NCBI GenBank assembly: GCA_050014495.1
Contig: JBEKDF010000002.1
Coordinates: 96,001-160,000, forward strand
Origin: Candidatus Bathyarchaeia archaeon
Lineage (GTDB): Archaea > Thermoproteota > Bathyarchaeia > TCS64
Direction of reading: 5' to 3'
Length of the DNA stretch: 64,000 bases
How positions within the stretch are numbered: the first letter of the stretch is position 1; every line of letters starts with the position of its first letter. Shown piece after piece: positions 2,465 through 39,137 of this stretch. The notes under the pieces were generated by a model. It did not search any database and was not told the DNA's origin. It saw only the letters and a list, made by a program, of their open reading frames with translations. Both the position numbers and the translations under genes were made by a program.

Positions 2465-2792
2465 GGGTGCAGCGGTGGCTCCTATGGGCAATCGGGCTGG
2501 CGTGACGCAGGTCCGCGTCACCCCCCTCCGTCCCGAATTCCCGCGAGCGCCCAACGTTCAGACTTAGGTTGCTCCCTCCCGGGCCTGGCCAGGTTCGCCC
2601 GTCGAATGCACACGCGCCCCCCTACGAGGGCGTGCCTTGCAACCGCCGGCCCCGCGGGGCAGGACATCTCCGGAGGGCTCCGCGCCTTACGCCACGCTTC
2701 CTCCGGCCACCCAAGAGGTTACTGACCCCCCTTGTAGCCCATTAGAGGTGCGGGGCAGGGCTGGCTCCCCGATCCTACCCACCACTGCATCC
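2465..2792 (-). ncRNA. ffs: Archaeal signal recognition particle (7S) RNA
   Basis: The minus strand has the helix-8 motif CCAGGCCCGGGAGGGAGCAACC, helix 6 CGCCCUC-GUAG-GGGGGCG (GNAR loop) and a terminal helix GGAUGCAGUGGUGG/CCACCGCUGCACCC. About 330 nt, GC-rich, intergenic. Confidence 0.93.
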
Positions 2793-17385: not shown

Positions 17386-17626
17386 GGGTGAAAGGAAAGG
17401 GCATCGAATCTATAAGATCAACTAATCGAAAGCGCTGTCGACGGTAAGGGTTTCACCAAATCGAAACGAATAAGCTTCTGGTACTTCCCAGGGTGCCATC
17501 CATTCACGTTTGAGGTTTTTAAATACTGGATTTTATTAACCAAGTTTCGCAGCAGCGTTCTTAGCGCGCGCGCAATTTTGAGTCATCGGAAAAGGCTTAA
17601 GTTCGGCTATCTATGTGCTGGGCTAA

Positions 17627-29188: not shown

Positions 29189-29599
29189 CAGGTACCCCAG
29201 CCATGGGATACGGGTCTCACGTATTAATTATTTTTAACGGGATTTTTAATTGATTTAATGGGGAATGACTTTCGGGGTCGTTTATAAACGTCATTATGTT
29301 TGGTGATGTGGTTTTCACCTTTTGATCTTAGAAATTTTTAAACTATTACGAATGAAAGCAAAGCTAATGATTTCGTCACAAGCTGTGCGTGTATAATGAC
29401 CAAATTACCCTTCAACACCGATACTATCGGTAGTTATAATCTATTTACCTAAACCAACCGATATTTCTGCCGGATTGGATACTGATATACTGATCATGCA
29501 AGGATCGAAGGCGACATAGAGCTGTTCTAAATACTAGCATTCGCGCACTCGAGATTAGATGTGTATACTATCAAATAACTGAGAATCGTTAGGGTATAA

Positions 29600-30490
29600 G
29601 TGGTGACTACCCTGCAATTGAGCTCCAAGATAGCTGTCGTCGCCGCTCTCTCTCTCGGCGCAATCATGCTAGCCGCCCTAACCATAATGCAGACACCAAA
29701 CTTCAACACAAGAACAATCCAAGTTGAATACGTCGGGTACAAAGATTTCAAGGAACTAGCCGAATCCGCCAAAGTGATCGTGACGGGAACCGTCGAATCG
29801 ATCAAGTCCACAAGCAACGCCAGCGCCCAGATCCCGTCCACAACCTTCGAGGTGAAGATCGAGAGAATATCCAAGCTCTCCCCAGACGGGGGAATGGGAA
29901 CAGTCATGGTTCAACAGTTCGGCTCCAAGAGTGGAAGATTCACGGTGGAGGAAGCCGATAACCCCTTGATGAAGATGGGCGACGAGTACGTGTTCTTCCT
30001 CGTAGGCGGAGAGGATAATGGCTGGCAAGTTCCCTACGGAACAACCGGGCCATACGGGAAATTCCAAGTCATCTCAGGCACCATTTACCCACTCAGCCAA
30101 AGCTGGTCACGGTATCAGGGGATGAGCCTGTATCAGTTCCTCGGCGAGGTGGATTCCGCACTCGGAGTCAAGACGACCTACTCGTCCCTCTGGGAGGCCA
30201 AACCTGAGATAGTGAATCAGACCGAATGGAAGATCCTACCTCCATCGGAGTATCCCGCCCCCGTTTGGCTTCTGGAGACGTGGATCGGGAAGATCGGTCT
30301 CCATTGGGATGAGCTGTCGAAGAAGGGTGTCATCCTCTGGTCCTGTGGTCGTGTGGGGAATGGGAAGCTACTGGTAAGCATGGATGTTGTCTCAAATGAG
30401 ACCGTGAGTACCTTCATGGAAACGATTCAGGGCGAGGTCCCACCCGGAATACTTATGATAGCAAAGGGTTCGCCAGCTATAGCGGTCTAG
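29600..30490 (+). CDS. Membrane-anchored/secreted hypothetical protein
   Basis: N-terminal hydrophobic helix; ELAESAKVIVTGTV...GDEYVFFL extracellular domain; C-terminal domain shared with 34521..35138. Confidence 0.75.
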   Translation: MVTTLQLSSKIAVVAALSLGAIMLAALTIMQTPNFNTRTIQVEYVGYKDFKELAESAKVIVTGTVESIKSTSNASAQIPSTTFEVKIERISKLSPDGGMGTVMVQQFGSKSGRFTVEEADNPLMKMGDEYVFFLVGGEDNGWQVPYGTTGPYGKFQVISGTIYPLSQSWSRYQGMSLYQFLGEVDSALGVKTTYSSLWEAKPEIVNQTEWKILPPSEYPAPVWLLETWIGKIGLHWDELSKKGVILWSCGRVGNGKLLVSMDVVSNETVSTFMETIQGEVPPGILMIAKGSPAIAV

Positions 30491-30505
30491 ATTACATTCT
30501 ATGCT

Positions 30506-30910
30506 TTAGTTGAAGACATTCGTGTGCAGTGCGCGAGATATGTTGAGATAAGTTGGATTGCTAGATGCGACTTCAATTATTAACGCGTCGTAGCCCGCGT
30601 TTCTTATTCCGTCTGCGAACCAACCTGAACAGTTACCCTCACCCCATATTTGGGTCAGTGGCGATTTGCCGGCCACTACGAATCTCGTGTCTCCTGGTAT
30701 CCCCGTTTTATTGATGGGGCCCAGGGCGAAGACGAGTTTATTTTTTGGGCCAAGTGGATCTATCCTTGGTTTCAACTCTTTATAGAGTAGATCGATGGCT
30801 AGTCCTTTTCCGCCGACGAAGAATCTTGCATCTTTTTCATTAAATTTTTCGTTAATAGTCTTCCCATTTGTTAGGTTAACTCTCAAAATTTTCCCATGCA
30901 TTCCAAACAT
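30506..30910 (-). pseudogene. N-terminal fragment of an aldehyde:ferredoxin oxidoreductase (AOR family)
   Basis: GKILRVNLT, FVGGKGLA, DPLGPKNKL, KSPLT, AGYDALII. Similarity ends at PTYLNI (about 30536), far short of a full AOR. Confidence 0.85.
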
Positions 30911-31043
30911 TTATCTGCCAAACTTTTCATCCCAAAAATGATTATTTAACATTATGCGCCAGTTCTTGTTTTAATGTTCTGAGCTGTAACCCTGAATGGC
31001 TTGCGCATGAGAAAAAACCTGCGCGCGCGAAAAAATGAGTAAT

Positions 31044-32633
31044 TTATGCCTTATATACGACTAACCCGTCAAGGATCGTTATCCAGGCCTTGCTCCGCTT
31101 CATCATTCTCTCCATCTTCTCAACCGTCTCAGGCTTAGTGTCTTTGAGCTTGAACCAATCACCGGTAATATCCCCATCAAAGATCGCGATATCCGCCAAC
31201 TTCCCACGTTCAATCGTGCCCCTTATGGCCTCCTCACGCGCGACGTAAGCACCCTCGTACGTGAAGCAGCGAACAGCCTCCTCAACGGATATTCTGCTGC
31301 CGGGCTGGGGATGGTTAACTGCGGACCAGATCCCATAAAGCGGGTGGAATGGCATCCCATCTGAGCCAAATGGCATATGAAAGCCTAGGTCAAGGAGACA
31401 CCTGTATGGGTTTCCCCTCGCCAGCCTCTTCCTACCGATCCTCATTTCATACATCCCACCAGGCCAGCCCCACTCACCAACGAAGTTGGGCTGCATCGAC
31501 GCGACGACCCCGAGACGCTGCGCCCTCTCAATGTCATCATCGGTTGGGTACTCGAAGTGCTCTATCCGGTACCGATGATCTGGGCGTGGGTCAAACTTTA
31601 GTGCTTCCTCTATCCTATCGATAGCCTCAGTGCAAGCGCGGTCGCCAATCGCGTGAATCGCCACTTCACCTTTCTTTGCGTGCTGCTCAAGGACCACCCT
31701 CTTATTCCTCTCCTGGTCGCCCACGTATACTCCGCAGGTCGAGGGGTTGTCGGCGTATGGCTCATACATCAGAGCAGTTTGGGCCCCAGCTGAACCATCG
31801 ATGCCTATCTTCAGGGTGCCAAATGTGAGCCACTGATCACCCGACCACTCACGAGGGTACCATGTCATGACGTGGCAGCGGAGGTGAAGGTCATTCTCCT
31901 TTCGCGCATCAACGTAGGGCTTAGTGGAGAGATGAGGCGCAGATTCATCGGGTCGGCTGCAGTCGGTGATACCCGTGCAGCCTAAGCTGTGAGCGAGGGC
32001 AGATGCGTCGCGGAGGCCTTTCCTCAATTCCTCGTTGGTGGGAGGAGGTATATACGGCGTGACGAGGTCCCTAGCGTCTCTTAAGACACCGGTGGGCTTA
32101 CCCAATTCATCCTTATCAACGACGCCTCCGGGGGGGTTGTGTGTGTCCCTTGTAATTCCGCATACCTCCAGGGCTCTGGTGTTTAGGACAATCATGTGAC
32201 CGCAGATGCGCGTCAACGCGACCGGATTGTCAGGTGACGCCTGGTCGAGGTCGTGCCTAGTGGGGTACCTTCTCTCTCTAAGGTTCTGGTCGTCCCACTG
32301 TCGTCCCTGGACCCATTTGTCTCTGGGTACACCCCTAGTTGAGATGTAGTCTCTTAGTCCCTCTACAATTTCTCTAATGGATGTGGCATCCCGGAGTTGG
32401 AGGTGGGTTAGGGAGTATCCCATTCCGAGGAAGTGGGTGTGGGAGTCGATTAGGCCAGGCACAACGGTCTTCTCGGCCGCGTCAATGACCTCCGCACCTG
32501 CAGGGATCTTGACATCATTTCTTCTCCCGACGGCTATAATCCTGTTACCCTCGAGGATGACTGTCGCGTCATTGAGGGCGGGTCTACCAGTGCCATCTAT
32601 TAGGCACCCACATAGAATGGCTTTCGTTCCGAT
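31044..32633 (-). CDS. Amidohydrolase (YtcJ / amidohydrolase_3 family); start codon unclear
   Basis: PGLIDSHTH, HAIGDRA, RIEH, GSDG. The frame extends 57 codons upstream of the track start (GTKAILCGCLIDGTG...VIDAAEKTVV) to ATC 32633; an in-frame stop lies a few codons further upstream. Confidence 0.88.
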   Translation of the reverse strand: MGTKAILCGCLIDGTGRPALNDATVILEGNRIIAVGRRNDVKIPAGAEVIDAAEKTVVPGLIDSHTHFLGMGYSLTHLQLRDATSIREIVEGLRDYISTRGVPRDKWVQGRQWDDQNLRERRYPTRHDLDQASPDNPVALTRICGHMIVLNTRALEVCGITRDTHNPPGGVVDKDELGKPTGVLRDARDLVTPYIPPPTNEELRKGLRDASALAHSLGCTGITDCSRPDESAPHLSTKPYVDARKENDLHLRCHVMTWYPREWSGDQWLTFGTLKIGIDGSAGAQTALMYEPYADNPSTCGVYVGDQERNKRVVLEQHAKKGEVAIHAIGDRACTEAIDRIEEALKFDPRPDHRYRIEHFEYPTDDDIERAQRLGVVASMQPNFVGEWGWPGGMYEMRIGRKRLARGNPYRCLLDLGFHMPFGSDGMPFHPLYGIWSAVNHPQPGSRISVEEAVRCFTYEGAYVAREEAIRGTIERGKLADIAIFDGDITGDWFKLKDTKPETVEKMERMMKRSKAWITILDGLVVYKA

Positions 32634-32735
32634 GGTTTGTCGCCATATTTTTTATGGTTACTAATGTTTTTAATGCTTCGTACAATTTTTAGTCGCGCGC
32701 GGATATATTGATCGCATCTTCCCTAAAAAAAGGCC

Positions 32736-32912
32736 TCATTGGGTTAGAGTTCCATCATACATCTAGTGCATCAGCTCCCTCGTATTCTCGAGGGTCAGTT
32801 TCCTGGGGTTGAATCTGGGGAGGCTGTAGAGTTGCTGGCGTTCTTTGAAGATGTACTCTGCGAACTCATCGATCTCGCTTTCGGAGATGCCGAGTTGTTT
32901 CAGATTGGCAGG
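32736..32912 (-). pseudogene. C-terminal remnant of an iron-containing alcohol dehydrogenase-like gene
   Basis: Hand translation PANLKQLGISESEIDEFAEYIFKERQQLYSLPRFNPRKLTLENTRELMH*MYDG matches the PxxLxxLG...NPR C-terminal signature. No start codon; begins at a GCGCGCGCGC tract. Confidence 0.7.
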
Positions 32913-33006
32913 CGCGCGCGCAAGTGAGGCAACATGAATGCTCAGATTGCGAGATATCTAAAATGGGCAGCTCGGAATATTCTCTGGTATCTTCTTCTAC
33001 TGCATT

Positions 33007-33255
33007 TTGATTCCCGTCTATCAATTCATATTATGGCTATCTCCCTTAATCGAGTTCACAATAATCGTCATGATCATAGGACTCATAGTATCCTTTGACA
33101 AAGAAAATAGAGATGAAAATCTAGGCAAAATTCTCACCATAGGAGCAGTTTTGGCTTCCATAGGTGCAGTTTTGTACTTTATTTGGAGTTTAGTGAAGAA
33201 GAAGCAGAGCGATGGAAGAAGAAATGTCAATGCTGATTATAGAGTGAAAGAATAA
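33007..33255 (+). CDS. Small membrane protein, possibly a degraded gene
   Basis: Two hydrophobic helices; the hydrophobic frame continues upstream to a stop, so the start is uncertain. Confidence 0.45.
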   Translation: MIPVYQFILWLSPLIEFTIIVMIIGLIVSFDKENRDENLGKILTIGAVLASIGAVLYFIWSLVKKKQSDGRRNVNADYRVKE

Positions 33256-33429
33256 GCTCTACGCTTCGATGAAGAAAACATCAGTCGTAATAGTCGCGGA
33301 TCTTCTTTCCCTCCCCACAATCTGCTCACACGCAGAGTCGTTATTGAGAGCCACACATCCCTTGAATAGACCCAGACTAGGACTCTCGTAGGATTGCCGA
33401 TAAAACGTATCAGCAAGAAAACTTGTACA

Positions 33430-33966
33430 ATGAGTGATCGAACCATGAAAACCGACGTCGAGTACCTAGAGTATGCTTGGCCCATGAGACAGTTCCTCAT
33501 CACGACTGGAAGTATCAAGGGAAAATCAAATATAATTACGGTCAGCTTCTGCATGCCGGTATCTAAGCAACCACCCCTCCTTGTCTGCGCAATAGGAACC
33601 GGGTTCTGCTCAGCCAAGCTAATAAACGAAAACCGCGAGTTCGTCGTGAACGTGCCTCCCCCGGAGCTGAAACGGCAGATATACTACTGCGGCTACCACT
33701 CAGGATACGATGTCGACAAGTTCAAGGAGACGGGTCTGACTCCAAAACCCGCCCGCCTCGTGAATGCACCCATCATCGATGAGTGCGTGGCGCACATGGA
33801 GTGTAAGGTCAGACAGGAAGTAGAGACTGGTGACAAGACGCTGTTCGTCGGTGAGGTAGTAGAAGCCTACGCTGACGTGGCTCTTGTAAGAGGGGAACGT
33901 GGGTTCGAGCACGGGAAAGGCGAGTTCCCGAGGGCCAGGTATGCCACTAGGTTCAACCTGAAATAG
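33430..33966 (+). CDS. Flavin reductase-like protein
   Basis: PVSKQPPLL, EFVVNVP, SGYDVDKF, APIIDECVAHMECKV, GDKTLFVGEV. Start at ATG 33430 or 33445. Confidence 0.9.
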   Translation: MSDRTMKTDVEYLEYAWPMRQFLITTGSIKGKSNIITVSFCMPVSKQPPLLVCAIGTGFCSAKLINENREFVVNVPPPELKRQIYYCGYHSGYDVDKFKETGLTPKPARLVNAPIIDECVAHMECKVRQEVETGDKTLFVGEVVEAYADVALVRGERGFEHGKGEFPRARYATRFNLK

Positions 33967-34520
33967 AATGCCCTCAGAACATGAGATCTCTTTTAGCGCG
34001 CGCAAGTGATAAGATGTGCACCTAATCTAAAACGCTCACTTCTCTTCCCTCTTCTCTAATCCCAACACTAATCGAGGCGGCCTTATGCTCCGCGTTGAAA
34101 CCTATCTTACAATTTCGCGCGCGCGGAGTGGATTCTACACATTCGCCTTTAGAAGGATCAGACCAGTCATAAGTGCAAGTTTTGAGACTGCCATCATGTG
34201 GGGGCCAAGGAGATGGGAACCTGGGATGATTTAGTCTTAATGGTTAGAACACCATAGCGCGTGCATAATAATTATAGATAATAAATTCAACATCCCATAC
34301 AATTGAGTCTCGTGCGCAAAATGATATAGGCTGTAACTCTTTGAACATTCTTCAATTCAGACCAGACCATCCTGAGCCTTATGGCTTAACAGAGCGATAC
34401 TTGAGCCAAATTTGTATATGGCATATCTTAACTCTAGGGCACTGTACAGAATATTCAAACCACATCTCTAAAAACCCAGAGAGCTAGATCAGAGCAGGAG
34501 ATTCGACAACGTCAAAACCG

Positions 34521-35138
34521 ATGTGGATCACTGTTTGCGTCCTCGTAGCAATCATAATTACAGGAGCCACCTCGCCCCACTCCCCCCATCCATCGCCTTC
34601 CCCCGAGAACTCTTACGGTACCCAGATGAACGTGAAGGATGTGCCACCAAACACGTTATGGTGGATGAAAGGATCAACTACCAACGATAACGGACCGGAG
34701 CTAAACTACGCCGAGAAGCTTCTATCACTTGTAAATAATGAGTCTCGCTCAGACCTTCGAGCCGTCTATGGGAATTGTTTCGTAAACCCAGGTAACACGA
34801 CACTGTTCATCGTCTTGACGCGGTGCGATTCGGAGACAACCGCATTGTTCAATAAGGCCCTTGATCCTCTGCAGGATGTCCACATAGTCTACAGGACGGG
34901 CCCAGCGACTCACGTGGAGCTTGAGCGATACATGGAGGAGCTTGGGAGTGTCGTTTCGAGGCTTCCGAGAGACGTGGTTGAGATCAACTCCTACAGCATC
35001 TCTGAGAATGCAACGATCCTCGTCGGTATGGGTAAGATCTCGCAGTCGTCAGTGACTGCTTTCGCAGATGCCATAAGGGGCATCATCCCGGAGGAGTTGA
35101 TCGTAATTAGACACATGGATATGGCCGTGTTAGTGTAA
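34521..35138 (+). CDS. Membrane-anchored/secreted hypothetical protein
   Basis: N-terminal hydrophobic segment and Pro/Ser linker; the C-terminal ~78 aa align without gaps to the C-terminus of 29600..30490. Confidence 0.7.
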   Translation: MWITVCVLVAIIITGATSPHSPHPSPSPENSYGTQMNVKDVPPNTLWWMKGSTTNDNGPELNYAEKLLSLVNNESRSDLRAVYGNCFVNPGNTTLFIVLTRCDSETTALFNKALDPLQDVHIVYRTGPATHVELERYMEELGSVVSRLPRDVVEINSYSISENATILVGMGKISQSSVTAFADAIRGIIPEELIVIRHMDMAVLV

Positions 35139-35306
35139 ACGGAAAAGGGCGTGCATGCGGATTCGGTTTAAAAAAACTTAGCGCGAGCACGCGCTCTATT
35201 ATAGAGGGGTGCGCGCACGCACGTGTATGAGCTTCTTGCGCAATCGCAATGATATAACCGGATGATCTCTTAGTAGCGAACTCGCATTATTGTTTTCAGG
35301 AACCAT

Positions 35307-35462
35307 TTAGCCACGATGGAATGTCTCATGACATTTAAGACATACAAGAACTTGTGTTCTATGGTCGGCTAAATCGATTCCAGCAACGATTGATTTGATT
35401 GCCCCGCATGCTGGGCAGTTATCTCCCCACCTAACTTTCTTTTCAGTATTTGAATTATCCAT
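35307..35462 (-). CDS. Small zinc-ribbon protein (51 aa)
   Basis: Hand translation: MDNSNTEKKVRWGDNCPACGAIKSIVAGIDLADHRTQVLVCLKCHETFHRG (two CxxC). Confidence 0.6.
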   Translation of the reverse strand: MDNSNTEKKVRWGDNCPACGAIKSIVAGIDLADHRTQVLVCLKCHETFHRG

Positions 35463-35649
35463 CAAAAAGGCCTCGATTAGGTTGAGAAAAGCCTTACATT
35501 GCTGTTTATAAAACCAAGCATTCTGTTGTGGAAGTGTATAAACAGGCAGGAAGACCTATGAATTTACTGCCACATTAAATAAATGATAACCTACATGAAA
35601 TGCTCATGAACACTGCTTCACTTCAAGAGGATCATCATTGCGCGCGCGG

Positions 35650-35926
35650 GTCAAGAACGACCACCTAGGCTTCGAGATCCATTACGTGCACGGAGGCGTT
35701 CACCACAAGTATCGACCTGACTATATTATTCACTTTAACAAATGGTACCTACTTTATCTTAGAAGTGAAAGGCCAGCCAACCCAACAGGACCGCAGCAAG
35801 GAAATTGCATTGCAGGAGTGGATAGAGGCCGTGAATACACATGGTGGCTTCGGAAAATGGCTATACGCCCAATTCACTCATCCTAAAGATATCACGGATA
35901 TCATTACAAACTCGATAATAGCTTGA
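35650..35926 (+). pseudogene. C-terminal PD-(D/E)xK nuclease remnant of a type III restriction Res subunit, frameshifted
   Basis: VKNDHLGFEIHY...YRPDYIIH, then (frameshift at about 35735) LTNGTYFILEVKG...EWIEAVNTHGGFGKW. Begins at TGCGCGCGCG 35639-35648. Confidence 0.8.
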
Positions 35927-36029
35927 CACTAACTCGTGGTGTGACAGTCATTCTTTAAACCGCTTTTCAAGCTCCCATTTGACTGCTCTACCGAGTTGGG
36001 TTTTATAAAATCTTGAAGGTGGATTTTTT

Positions 36030-37484
36030 TTAGACATCCATGACCGCTTCGCTGGGTGAAAGTGGCGTATTATTGTTTGGCCTCCTCCCACGGAGAACAG
36101 AGGGTATGATGGCGATTGTGTTCAGTACTGCGAGATAGAGGTATGTTCTCTGGAGTGCCTCGACGAAGAGTAATTTGTCTGCGGCTGTTACATCCACTGG
36201 GCCTAGAGAGGTTATAATTTGGCTGAGTAGAGGATATGGGACTATTAGTGTCAACAAGATTATGGCGAGGTTTAGACTTATCGTGAAGCCGACGTTGAAC
36301 ATCGTATTTCTGAATGCGGATGCTACACCTCTCCTATCGGCTGGGACGGCACCCATAATGGAGCTCATGTTAGGCGAGCCGAATAGGCCTGTGCCTACAC
36401 CGAAGATCATCATGTAAACTAGAACCGTCAAATATGGGGTTGAGGCGTCCACGGTCGAGAAGAGGTAGAGTGAGAGGCTGGTAATGGCCAGTCCGCCCGT
36501 TGTGAAGAGGAAGGGCCCGAATTTATCTGAGAGTTTCCCGCTGAGTGCCCCGAAGGCGAGGCTTGCTAACTCGAATGGGATCAGCCTTATTCCAGCATCG
36601 AAGGGGCTGAGGCCAATAACTAGTTGTAGGTATAGGCTTAGGAGAAGTAGGACTGCTCCCCATGCTGCTGCATTGATTAGTTGGGCCGTGACGCCCCCGG
36701 TGAATTCCCTTATCCCGAGTAGGCGGAGGTCGAGGAGTGGGTGTTCCTGGCGTCTCTCGTAACTCACGAATGCGGCTATGCTTAGGATTGCGATGACGAG
36801 GAGTATGTATACGATGTCGCGGTCCACCATCCCGTAGGCATCGTACGTTAAGGCGAAGAGAAATGCGGTTATTGAGACGGTGAAGGTCAAGAAACCCACC
36901 CAATCGATCGGAGAACTTTTTTCGAGTATGCCAACTTCTTTGAGTCGTTTCCAAGCCCAGAAGATGCCGAAGATGCCGATGGGAACGTTGATGTAGAAGA
37001 GGGCTCTCCAGTCGAGGAGGGCGAGAAGGACCCCGCTGAGTGTGAGGCCAGCCATGGCTCCAAACCTGAAGGAGCTAAAGTTTAGGCCAAGGGCGAAGCC
37101 AAGCTCTTTGACAGGGGTGGCGTCCACTATCATCGCGACGCTGTTGACGCTGAGAATCCCCGATCCGACTCCTTGAAGGAACCTAAAAAAGATAACTTGT
37201 GTAGGGGTTCCTGAGAGACTGATTAGGGCTGATCCTAATGTGAAGAGGAAGAAACCTGAGATGTAGATCTTGACTCTTCCGAAGATGTCCGTTACTCTAC
37301 CGACTAGGAGAAGGATGATAGTGCTGCCGAGTGTGTATGACTGCGTAAACCAGATGGCTTGCTCGGCGTCTGCGCCGAGGGCTGCAGCGACCTGGGGGAG
37401 GCCGACGATGATTATTCGGGAGTCTATGCCAGCCATTAGCACCCCAATGGTGGTGACGGTGAGTACTGTCCACTTATAGTTCAA
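36030..37484 (-). CDS. MFS transporter, DHA2 (EmrB/QacA)-like, about 14 TM
   Basis: GRVTDIFGR, DWRALFYINVPIG, HPLLDLRL. Confidence 0.92.
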   Translation of the reverse strand: MNYKWTVLTVTTIGVLMAGIDSRIIIVGLPQVAAALGADAEQAIWFTQSYTLGSTIILLLVGRVTDIFGRVKIYISGFFLFTLGSALISLSGTPTQVIFFRFLQGVGSGILSVNSVAMIVDATPVKELGFALGLNFSSFRFGAMAGLTLSGVLLALLDWRALFYINVPIGIFGIFWAWKRLKEVGILEKSSPIDWVGFLTFTVSITAFLFALTYDAYGMVDRDIVYILLVIAILSIAAFVSYERRQEHPLLDLRLLGIREFTGGVTAQLINAAAWGAVLLLLSLYLQLVIGLSPFDAGIRLIPFELASLAFGALSGKLSDKFGPFLFTTGGLAITSLSLYLFSTVDASTPYLTVLVYMMIFGVGTGLFGSPNMSSIMGAVPADRRGVASAFRNTMFNVGFTISLNLAIILLTLIVPYPLLSQIITSLGPVDVTAADKLLFVEALQRTYLYLAVLNTIAIIPSVLRGRRPNNNTPLSPSEAVMDV

Positions 37485-37768
37485 ATCATATGCCTTCTGG
37501 GTTGACGAATAGGGTTCACGAGGTTGAACTTAAATCAGTATCATTGTCGCTGCATCGATCTGGTTTGTATTAGTGTCTTTGAGCTTCATTGATTTCGTTC
37601 TTAGAGGTTTTCCAGAGTTGTGGGAAATAGGGTAATGTGCTAATGAGGATCATATCATAAATTGATATTAACTATTTATTGGGATAGTAATCGCATTTCT
37701 TCGTGCGCGCAAAGTGATACTGTTCTAAACAGTAGCATTAAGTCACCGATGCCAAGGAGTAATCACTA

Positions 37769-38572
37769 ATGTCCACCAACTCAAACACAACCTTAACGGT
37801 GCTAATCTCCATCATCCTAGCCACATCTGCCTTCCTAGCTGTAGCAATAAGTCAACCCGTACCCCAAATAAAGGTGAGTGAGGAGCAGGCAATCAGCATA
37901 CTCAGGGAATACGATAACACTGATAACAGAATCGTAAACGGAACCATCAGGACCCTAAGCGCTAACTTGGAGTACATCTCACTCAACTGGACAACTTACC
38001 TGAGCAACACTGGCGATGAACCCCACAGCCGCATATACATCTCAGATACCCCCGTGGGCGAATACAAGCCGTACTGGTTCATCCACATCGAATCGGTCTG
38101 GGATTACGGTTGGAGTGGCGGTTCTGGAAGCTACATCGTTGACGCGCAGAGTGGGGAGATCGTGCTCTCACTCGAGAGAGTCGGCGGAGGAATCAGCGTA
38201 ATCGGTCCTGACTACCTGATTTTCCTTCAACCTGAGGCGTGGGATTATAATAATCCGGTTGAGGCAAAGCTGGGTGCGTTCACCCCCATCACACTGACTC
38301 TGACCGCTGAACCCGACTACCACGCCTCGCTTCCCGTGTCGATGAAGATTGCTAACGTTCCATTGGGCTACTGTGTTGGACCGAGTAATTCGTCTGCGGT
38401 CCTGAAAACGGGTGGGTATGTGTCATTCATTCTTGAGGTCTTCACTCCAGTTGCTTACCCGGCTGATTTTCTGCCGCCTCCGGCTGACCCTCATCCTCAT
38501 TTTGATGTTGGGATCAGCTTCCTCGGGCACTCCTACTCTTATCCTGTGTACATTATTCCTTCTAACAAGTGA
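37769..38572 (+). CDS. Membrane-anchored/secreted hypothetical protein with PepSY-like motif
   Basis: Signal/anchor helix, VSEEQAISI and YIVDAQSGEIV motifs, beta-rich C-terminus. Confidence 0.7.
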   Translation: MSTNSNTTLTVLISIILATSAFLAVAISQPVPQIKVSEEQAISILREYDNTDNRIVNGTIRTLSANLEYISLNWTTYLSNTGDEPHSRIYISDTPVGEYKPYWFIHIESVWDYGWSGGSGSYIVDAQSGEIVLSLERVGGGISVIGPDYLIFLQPEAWDYNNPVEAKLGAFTPITLTLTAEPDYHASLPVSMKIANVPLGYCVGPSNSSAVLKTGGYVSFILEVFTPVAYPADFLPPPADPHPHFDVGISFLGHSYSYPVYIIPSNK

Positions 38573-38753
38573 ACAATCTGGTTGTGATTCAGTTTACCGC
38601 GCGCGCATATGGAGGGCTATTACAATTACAGCTAACGCGATTGAAATCAACTCAATGAACCAACCCTGCACCCAGAAGGGGTTCTCCACCTTCTGTGGGA
38701 ACACCAGTAAGATGTGCGCGCGCAATTAGCATCCAGTTAATAGCACGTGTATT

Positions 38754-38918
38754 CTATTCATCAAACCACTCGATAGCCCAGGCATTCAGTTGGTCGATCG
38801 TTTTGATTCTTTTTAGTTGTATTTTTGCCTTATTCAATGACTCGATGATGTCCGGTGAATAATCTTTGTCAAGATCGACTGTAATGGACTTGTATAATTT
38901 TCCTCTCTCAGTTGTCAT
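38754..38918 (-). CDS. Small hypothetical protein (54 aa)
   Basis: Hand translation: MTTERGKLYKSITVDLDKDYSPDIIESLNKAKIQLKRIKTIDQLNAWAIEWFDE, with AAGGTG upstream. Confidence 0.5.
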   Translation of the reverse strand: MTTERGKLYKSITVDLDKDYSPDIIESLNKAKIQLKRIKTIDQLNAWAIEWFDE

Positions 38919-39137
38919 TTCCTAACACCTTAAGCGGGCGACAAAATCAAATTAACTTAGGTTTCTAAAATAATTATTCTTATTTGGCTTAATCTAGATT
39001 TGTTACTCGTGCGAGAGATCATCATCCTTTTCGAAATAATCCTAGAGAGATATGGTTCCAATTGGCTTTAGTTTTGATCTTATGAGCGCGCGCATGCTGA
39101 TGCGGTTACGCGCGCGCACCTCGATCCTACATCCTTC

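Follow-up and report, generated by a model that had tools for sequence, protein, structure and literature searches.

Alternating GC tracts as newly written junction scars in a bathyarchaeial gene island, and a candidate RNA-templated end-joining system that may write them

The window analysed here is a stretch of 64,000 nucleotides from a Candidatus Bathyarchaeia archaeon, in which an island of about 10 kb lies between an aminotransferase gene and a PEPCK gene. The two genes are 65-110 bp apart in 5/7 relatives compared here, and 360 and 890 bp apart in the other two, so that the alignment with relatives proposed in the original prediction identifies the island as an insertion. Its features, numbered from the first letter of the window, are as follows.

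29238-39137: insertion between the aminotransferase and PEPCK genes, made up of whole genes and gene fragments with GC tracts at the joins
29542-29548: degenerate tract; a repeat shared with contig C19 stops 8 bp before it
29600-30490, forward strand: 296-aa protein without a Pfam family, matching a paralogue on contig C53 at 49%
30521-30535: degenerate tract cutting the gene of the next entry; homology to full-length proteins ends at 30530-30545
30530-30910, reverse strand: N-terminal fragment of aldehyde:ferredoxin oxidoreductase (AOR; PF02730), about 125 of 620 aa
31021-31029: perfect 9-bp scar
31044-32650, reverse strand: amidohydrolase, located elsewhere in three relatives, at the place equivalent to 22.8 kb of the window
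32694-32701: perfect 8-bp scar
32742-32911, reverse strand: scar-bounded last 57 codons of a 412-aa protein, matching the whole gene on contig C25 at 82%
32912-32921: perfect 10-bp scar; GCGC is lacking at the break in the intact homologue
33394-33966, forward strand: flavin reductase-like gene (PF01613)
33996-34003: perfect 8-bp scar
34028-34115, reverse strand: final 30 codons of a 329-aa protein, which the following scar cuts
34116-34125: perfect 10-bp scar, with only CG common to the parent
34257-34318: two degenerate tracts, 54 bp apart
34521-35138, forward strand: 205-aa protein without a Pfam family
35149-35229: three clustered degenerate tracts
35640-35648: perfect 9-bp scar overwriting a Trp codon, with one base common to the parent
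35648-35926, forward strand: C-terminal fragment of a 928-aa protein that is whole on contig C22 (85% DNA identity)
36030-37484, reverse strand: MFS transporter (PF07690)
37702-37711: degenerate tract with a perfect core of 6 bp
37769-38572, forward strand: 267-aa protein without a Pfam family, with paralogues on contigs C43 and C7
38598-38606: perfect 9-bp scar
38716-38723: perfect 8-bp scar
39086-39093: perfect 8-bp scar
39109-39117: perfect 9-bp scar, 15 bp from the preceding one, at the right end of the insertion
17564-17573: perfect 10-bp tract, intergenic, outside the island

The alternating tracts described in the original prediction are real. The interval 29384-39119 contains ten perfect alternating C/G runs of 8-10 bp, compared with two in the other 54 kb of the window, and the remaining reported tracts are about nine degenerate purine-pyrimidine runs. 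Genome-wide there are 459 alternating C/G runs of at least 8 bp, clustered along the genome, and 447 of these are 8-10 bp long. Under an order-2 Markov model the 8-mer GCGCGCGC was observed 512 times against 29 expected (18-fold), unlike AT and GT repeats, which stood near their expected counts in the same comparison; with ORFs crudely called, 403/459 runs fall between them or at their margins, in a genome that is 82% coding. The same scars are present in nine Bathyarchaeia families. The perfect runs of the island are not assembly chimeras, because all ten are bridged by contigs of other sequencing runs (X3, X4 and X9), which may share one sampling campaign; several are also spanned in X12, a strain 95-99% alike. 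The tract at 17564 was considered as the native site of the amidohydrolase gene and ruled out, given its position at 22.8 kb in the relatives.

Among the units between the tracts, the AOR fragment had been recognised correctly. The units at 32742-32912 and 35648-35926, put down as ADH and Res fragments, are indeed fragments, namely C-terminal pieces of a 412-aa and a 928-aa protein that are whole on other contigs. What had been taken for a spacer at 34028-34117 is a gene fragment instead, and a Zn ribbon between 35229 and 35639 was not confirmed. The window contains no tRNA, and the Rfam search of it returned nothing besides SRP RNA; no recombinase family occurs among the island ORFs.

Parental sequences were traced on both sides for 18 joints, eight of which are plain deletions of 9-1470 bp within one parent. 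GCGC was absent from both parents at 16/18 and present in both at none, and the joints hold 5-10 bases that come from neither parent. Among joints traced on one side, GCGC near the break was missing in 101/115; parents with 96-99% identity lack the tract. Because neither parent has GCGC at 16/18 joints, the tracts are junction scars, a new linker written where DNA was rejoined, and not recombination sites. The units are not cassettes, as had been proposed, because the tracts share no flank motif beyond the two outer bases and four sequencing runs showed no alternative joins at them. Mirror symmetry of the two outer flanks was at chance (103 vs 102.5). At the break the next parental base was G in 24/38 cases against a background of 24%, and the parent ended in AT at 8/34 breaks (background 7%) and in TA at 2/34.

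The original prediction correctly saw in the tracts the junctions of a recurrent process, and it was also right about a catalyst in trans and the involvement of end joining. It was wrong in the three mechanisms it offered, as they were worded: site-specific recombination, breakage at Z-DNA-prone (CG)n and cutting at GCGCGC all require GCGC in the parents at the break. Tracts do coincide with breakpoints: of 243 ends of 95% repeats, 83 have a tract where 3 would be expected, IS ends making up many of them, and GCGC occurs near the break in 14/115 parents, above the 3% background. However, parental GCGC is lacking at nearly all two-sided joints, no common site motif exists, and GCGC is not avoided in the genome (ratio 0.99), as it might be under restriction cutting. 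Pre-existing GC runs are refuted as a general origin by the parent sequences, and we regard them as an extremely improbable source of the joints. In the single-contig genome G074, where 800 of 1,976 kb were covered, repeat ends were not enriched at tracts (5/154 vs 2.1), and five joints have parents that lack the tract.

Insertion sequences were weighed at greater length. IS5/IS1182-like elements might carry GCGCGC flanks into breaks accompanied by deletion and then excise, the joined flanks remaining as 6-10-bp footprints. Around IS ends the flanking GCGCGC reaches 90-99% at each position; among about 14 IS-end flanks with a homologue, none has GCGC in the intact gene; in genome G016 a MITE flanked by tracts has taken the place of about 250 bp in a 99% duplicate; a transposase is found in 16/35 scar-rich genomes vs 39/186 others; and one report (10.1101/2024.06.02.596822) describes IS insertion into breaks without duplication. 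Against this, 14/35 scar-rich genomes, G074 included, show neither an IS5-type transposase nor DUF772 nor Ku, and G158, G064 and G182 have several IS copies but few scars. Flanks differ among identical IS copies and follow the scar edge of the host, and two insertions plus two excisions would be required for every fragment of 89-330 bp scarred at both ends and for scars only 15 bp from one another. The duplication or footprint test found no target sequence in the parent at the break, four sequencing runs held no empty IS allele on contig C67, and no matched gene halves were found at IS ends. We therefore consider an IS origin improbable; the IS5/IS1182-like and IS110 elements located in scars probably do no more than exploit them. 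In G104, flanks of 6+6 bp against free scars of 8 bp suggest a 4-bp duplication, which the 8+10 flanks of the present genome fit less well. The transposase tree was a quick tree only, and IS110 was rejected as a cause, being found in only 1/5 genomes.

A profile built from gene tails of three other genomes retrieved an RNA-like element of about 100 nt in eight copies in this genome, two of them 2.3-2.7 kb downstream of an extra primase-family gene on contig C53; another copy is at C21:35671-35797. The same element forms the 3' tail of members of this gene's family in four other genomes; it has no Rfam match. Its helices P1 and P3 cross, giving a predicted pseudoknot, and over 16 copies they form 222/256 pairs against 184 (maximum 198) in 200 shuffles. 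P1 is altered on both strands across genomes, P3 is imperfect in the copies of this genome, and covariation within its seven copies did not exceed that of shuffles (31/500). A hand-made structure descriptor gave 23 hits, which included only 6 known copies and missed others.

The loop of 7/8 copies in this genome carries the word GGCGCAU, the complement of the commonest scar edge, ATGCGC. Of 604 scar edges here, 159 have AT before G and 37 TA before G, although AT precedes only 26% of G-start edges (2/12 in the island). G016 has GCAU in 3/3 copies, and AT before G at 10 edges vs TA before G at 3, of 69. In G104 two words occur, CGCGCUA and GCGCGUA, and the edges of this genome read TA before G 14 vs 1 of 29 and TA before C 9 vs 0 of 21. 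The match of word and edge thus covers three genomes (this one, G016 and G104) from two families. The single copy in G098 predicts TA before C, but its loci show TA before G (5/8) and no C-start edge. When 150 candidates per genome were scored with models from few lineages, no copy of the RNA turned up in four scar-bearing genomes, namely G074 (one contig, 144 scars), G151 (one contig, 41 scars), G015 and G007; the candidates in G151 were noise. The loop holds just four alternating bases, and longer runs assume slippage.

The present genome has one intact extra primase-family gene (C53:7049-7861; PF01896), whose unbroken frame encodes the motifs DxD and SGxxGxH as well as a third Asp. The enzyme or its wrecks were found in 10/35 scar-rich vs 10/186 other genomes, on one reading of the search and with kin that are not independent; G135, G133 and G102 have the gene and few scars. 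An archaeal primase-family domain with reverse transcriptase activity, that of PolpTN2, is described in PMC5862659. RVT_1 had no match, and so no reverse transcriptase was found, in any of five genomes, this one included. A 439-aa primase-like gene on contig C20 was set aside, with close homologues in just 6/221 genomes and none in G016, G011 or G009. Among other polymerases, PolX occurs in 25/31 genomes including scar-free ones, PolB in all five examined, and PolY was not found in this genome; solo Cas1, present here in six pieces, was not found in scar-rich G175.

The reading that best accommodates these observations, to which we assign a probability of about 0.55 from sequence comparisons, is a telomerase-like, RNA-templated end joining by the primase-family polymerase, whose activity is predicted. 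The RNA loop would be copied onto each broken end by the extra enzyme. Between one and four bases at a 3' end (T, AT, G, GC) would pair with the loop 5'-GGCGCAU-3', ATGCGC would be added by the enzyme, and a two-base slip would then add further GC. Two such self-complementary tails would anneal and be sealed; an overlap of 2-6 bases would yield mostly 8-10-bp runs with a sharp upper limit. The 10-kb mosaic would have been built by repeated breakage, loss and fragment capture. The gene and its RNA are probably mobile and transient, with scars that outlast both, and IS5/IS1182-like and IS110 elements would land in the scars later. The chances seem evenly balanced that this is a mobile telomerase-like RNP which can put a programmable self-complementary linker on any DNA end and so join unrelated DNA, that much of the deletion, gene capture and island building in Bathyarchaeia is driven by it, and that two unrelated IS families have evolved to land in its scars.

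The replicative primase of the host, PriSL, or another core polymerase might instead write the linker without RNA, through G/C tails, annealing over 2-4 G:C pairs and a slip, with the RNA match a matter of chance or secondary. In G074 and G151 no primase-family gene other than PriS was seen, and an overlap of 2-4 fits the run-length peak at 8-10. In published work, breaks repaired by PriSL in vivo gain C insertions next to G (PMC12019639), and annealing by the enzyme once terminal transfer has occurred works best over 2-4 G:C pairs (PMC3333859). The products described there, however, consist of G runs or of single bases and lack an alternating GC sequence between constant outer bases. Although PriS is universal, scars are few in most genomes; no feature of ten PriS sequences tracks scars, and PriSL would leave unexplained the lineage-specific AT or TA edges that match an RNA word. 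We find this account rather unlikely. Ku-LigD end joining is a very improbable writer: its operon (C3:64209-67466; Ku, Pol and ligase-phosphoesterase) is complete in this genome and Ku is confined to the same family among 31 relatives, but Ku occurs in only 12/35 scar-rich genomes and in 51/186 others, and scar-free G001 and G010 have intact operons. Ku-LigD is largely refuted as writer and may seal joints where present. Clade-specific residues of the LigD polymerase merely track kinship.

Telomerase, composed of TERT and telomerase RNA, also adds repeats de novo at internal breaks. The candidate system would resemble it in having a short, single-stranded putative template flanked by a hairpin and a predicted pseudoknot, in priming by 1-4 paired bases and in repeat addition by realignment. 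It would differ in using a primase-family enzyme rather than a TERT-type reverse transcriptase (no RVT_1 match), an RNA of about 100 nt, and a self-complementary product whose role is to connect two ends and not to cap a single one. Integrons and shufflons share the array of small units with a repeated junction, whereas here there is no recombinase and no attC-like fold or common site, the units are random fragments and the junction is absent from the donors. We know of no fixed linker in prokaryotic NHEJ. That pathway (Ku and LigD polymerase; closest solved relative PDB 5dmu) likewise relies on fill-in by a primase-family polymerase and its operon is present here, but it does not track scars across 221 genomes. 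Microhomology end joining by PriSL in Saccharolobus (PMC12019639 and PMC3333859) has in common an archaeal primase-family enzyme, terminal addition, annealing over few G:C pairs and error-prone joints; it inserts mostly 1-2 bp or G runs, whereas the linker here alternates over 6-10 bp and has edges specific to the lineage, and an additional gene comes with an RNA of its own. Palindrome-targeting IS such as IS1272 (PMC5678879) share DUF772 with a DDE transposase, terminal inverted repeats and a palindromic target; the present elements fall below all NCBIfam cut-offs, target a GC run with a likely 4-bp duplication, and appear to use scars.

A literature search, which did not cover subscription papers and supplements, returned no report of GC linkers, or of a primase templated by RNA, in these archaea. 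The firmly established part is already unusual: a constant linker, written anew at joints that number in the hundreds per genome in a very widespread archaeal class, dates and maps every rearrangement. If the RNA-templated reading is true, a telomerase-like enzyme built from a primase would bear on the origin of telomerase-type repeat addition and on break repair in archaea without Ku, and would be a candidate programmable tool for chosen DNA overhangs. A 270-aa protein and a 100-nt RNA would suffice for a direct test.

The 3.1-Mb genome under study (G000, 92 contigs) was best matched by sequencing runs from peat metagenomes, and the window covers C2:96001-160000 of it. An insertion occupies window positions 29238-39137: in five of the seven relatives read there, the aminotransferase and PEPCK genes on its two sides are separated by 65-110 bp. 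Perfect alternating C/G runs of at least 8 bp occur 12 times in the window, 10 of them inside the insertion, and 459 times genome-wide (192 of 8 bp, 144 of 9 bp, 111 of 10 bp and just 12 longer), with 403 of the 459 lying outside ORFs or at an ORF edge. The alternating C/G 8-mer was observed 512 times genome-wide where 29 were expected; repeats of AT and of GT were near expectation, and no avoidance of GCGC was found in G000. At the tract positions first listed for the island, the perfect runs were confirmed and degenerate runs are present at the remaining places. Some degenerate variants reflect decay, because one of them has a perfect counterpart, within DNA that is 99% identical, from which it differs by a single C-to-T change. 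The proposal of a recurrent process looked to independent reads both to span the junctions and to reveal alternative joins; contigs from other runs bridged all ten island runs and held no alternative join at any tract. Two non-coding features were recorded in the window:

29315-29534: left end of the island, a 100-220-bp non-coding stretch matching contigs C19, C21 and C22 and the compared genome G002 at 83-90%
2473-2784, minus strand: archaeal SRP RNA gene

The original inference that tracts are junctions was borne out by repeat ends that fall there and by traced homologues, most of which break there. Ends of 95% repeats fell at tracts in 83 of 243 cases against about 3 expected, many being IS ends. 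Homologues were traced at ≥80% identity for G000, 779 kb of a compared genome (G016) and fetched loci; 29 of 144 traceable flanks continued through the tract and 115 broke there, with GCGC near the break in the homologue at just 14. The parents (intact homologues) of the window fragments at 32912, 34116 and 35640 are without GCGC at the break. Among 18 joints traced on both sides, GCGC was present in neither parent at 16 and in both at none, and 5-10 tract bases derive from neither parent. At eight of these joints a single parent has lost 9-1470 bp; one of the eight, at contig C3:76677, lies within an open reading frame and swaps sequence there without shifting the frame. Some fragments, 160-330 bp long, are bounded by tracts on both sides. 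Breaks are not random: the base following the break in the parent was G in 24 of 38 cases (GC in 11), and the parent ended in AT in 8 of 34. The tracts are very probably new 6-10-bp linkers added at joints and not pre-existing sites. Because parents lack GCGC at most of the traced joints, we rejected all models that need a site beforehand, and site-specific recombination, Z-DNA breakage and GCGCGC cutting, the sources first proposed, are highly improbable.

Across 221 genomes of the class, 35 genomes from nine families were scar-rich (at least 20 WGCGCGCGCW), a distribution patchy even inside genera. For the two flank bases outside the tract, other families show TA (TAGCGCGCGCTA) where G000 shows AT; tracts in the TA families also cut genes, at 9 of 273 flanks. 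An extra primase-family gene, intact once in G000 (C53) and accompanied by five broken copies, was present whole or broken in 10 of 35 scar-rich genomes versus 10 of 186 other genomes, by a hand count in which kin are not independent; scars are few in some of the genomes that carry it. Its homologues in G104, G098, G135 and G133 carry an RNA-like 3' tail, and the C53 gene's own 3' end has none. A profile built from the primase-gene tails of other genomes retrieved eight copies in G000 (seven full, one half), including two that lie downstream of the C53 gene at a distance of 2.3-2.7 kb, as well as three copies in G016 and one in G005; G104 holds a second copy close to a gene fragment. The element starts with CCCTGAG, which often holds a stop codon, followed by a hairpin, a predicted single-stranded loop and two crossing helices, and has no match in Rfam. 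Both strands of helix P1 change between genomes, and pairing in P1 and P3 was 222 of 256 versus 184 in shuffles.

The loop word GGCGCAU, present in 7 of 8 G000 copies, would be copied as ATGCGC, and this is the edge seen most often at scars (AT at 159 and TA at 37 of 604 edges). Edges agreed with the loop word in G016 (10 versus 3) and in G104, where CGCGCUA and GCGCGUA accompany TA before G (14 versus 1) and TA before C (9 versus 0). For the single copy in G098 the predicted phase is wrong, and the island's 12 edges are T-rich in 9 and AT in just 2. Parent ends in AT, G or GC were in register with the loop in 26 of 34 cases, a bias that priming on the loop would give. With 150 candidates scored per genome, the element was not found in scar-bearing G074, G151, G015 and G007 or in scar-free G001 and G100; for the scar-bearing genomes, RNA templating would require a transient system or search models that are too narrow.

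We favor, at a probability of about 0.55 for the whole reading, RNA-templated addition: the extra primase-family enzyme would add bases to a DNA end with the candidate RNA as template, slippage on the template would extend the GC run, and two such tails would anneal with each other and be sealed. If this holds, the system would work like telomerase, but it is not a telomerase member since there is no TERT here. One primase-family domain from an archaeon is reported to act as a reverse transcriptase (PMC5862659). A literature search, supplements aside, on GC linkers or RNA-templated primases in these archaea found nothing. Three small ORFs without a family (143, 93 and 98 aa) separate the extra primase gene from the copies of the candidate RNA (C53:9520-10621). 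The 93- and 98-aa ORFs have homologues ahead of the candidate RNA on C56 and C40 too, so the ORFs may belong to the system.

Tailing by the host PriSL is a less probable writer, though the strongest of the rivals (PMC12019639 and PMC3333859); in scar-bearing G074 and G151, PriS alone was found among primase-family genes. That IS elements carry the linker into joints is somewhat more doubtful still (10.1101/2024.06.02.596822 and PMC5678879). About 45 tracts adjoin inverted repeats of DUF772-DDE elements, which score under the IS5 and IS1182 cut-offs, and of their MITEs. Flanks of nine copies in G104 are about 6+6 and free scars there mostly 8 bp, the pattern expected from a 4-bp duplication; G000 flanks of 8+10 fit more poorly. 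Flanks differ between identical copies and match the host's scar edge, no empty allele was found on C67 in four sequencing runs, and the transposase of these elements was present in 16, DUF772 in 15, Ku in 12 and none of the three in 14 of the 35 scar-rich genomes. Single-contig G074, one of the 14, has 184 tracts in the 800 kb read and no transposase there. We read these elements as users of scars. Linker writing by Ku-LigD is very improbable, as its presence does not track scars (Ku in 63 of 221 genomes); PolX, RT, PolY, PolB, Cas1 and a primase-like gene on C20 were rejected on the same ground. A literature search on NHEJ and LigD in Bathyarchaeia found no paper.

Further loci were noted, all in G000 unless stated:

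C3:64209-67466: complete operon of Ku, LigD polymerase and ligase-phosphoesterase, adjoining a 281-aa gene
C80:1669-2646, and on C18, C46, C6, C24 and C79: solo Cas1, six genes or gene pieces with no visible array or other cas genes; GC scars interrupt four of them
C20 (fetched locus L223, about 1330-1450; also L359-L363): 439-aa primase-like gene in which, across six genomes, a conserved foldable 110-nt in-frame stretch directly follows the primase domain; it has no GC word, and Rfam gave no match at the gathering score
C79:7080-7543 and C48:7091: elements of MITE size that share the inverted repeats of the DUF772-DDE elements and have, in place of a transposase, a small HTH gene of ArsR/MarR type
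C17:57458-58775 and C48:5831-7091 (also fetched loci L028, L170 and L198): IS110-family element (PF01548, PF02371) whose insertion point, with AG as the 2-base core, is exactly between an IS5-like inverted repeat and the adjoining GC run

The upstream non-coding part of the IS110 element conserves CCAAGCGCGCG, which probably serves a bridge-type RNA as its target-binding segment. A repeated 40-60-bp element with the core CTTATCCTCACTT has 113 copies in G000 (for example on C24, C50, C53, C74, C75, C77 and C90); it precedes small membrane-protein genes of one family, often in arrays on small contigs, and resembles a cassette system distinct from the GC scars.
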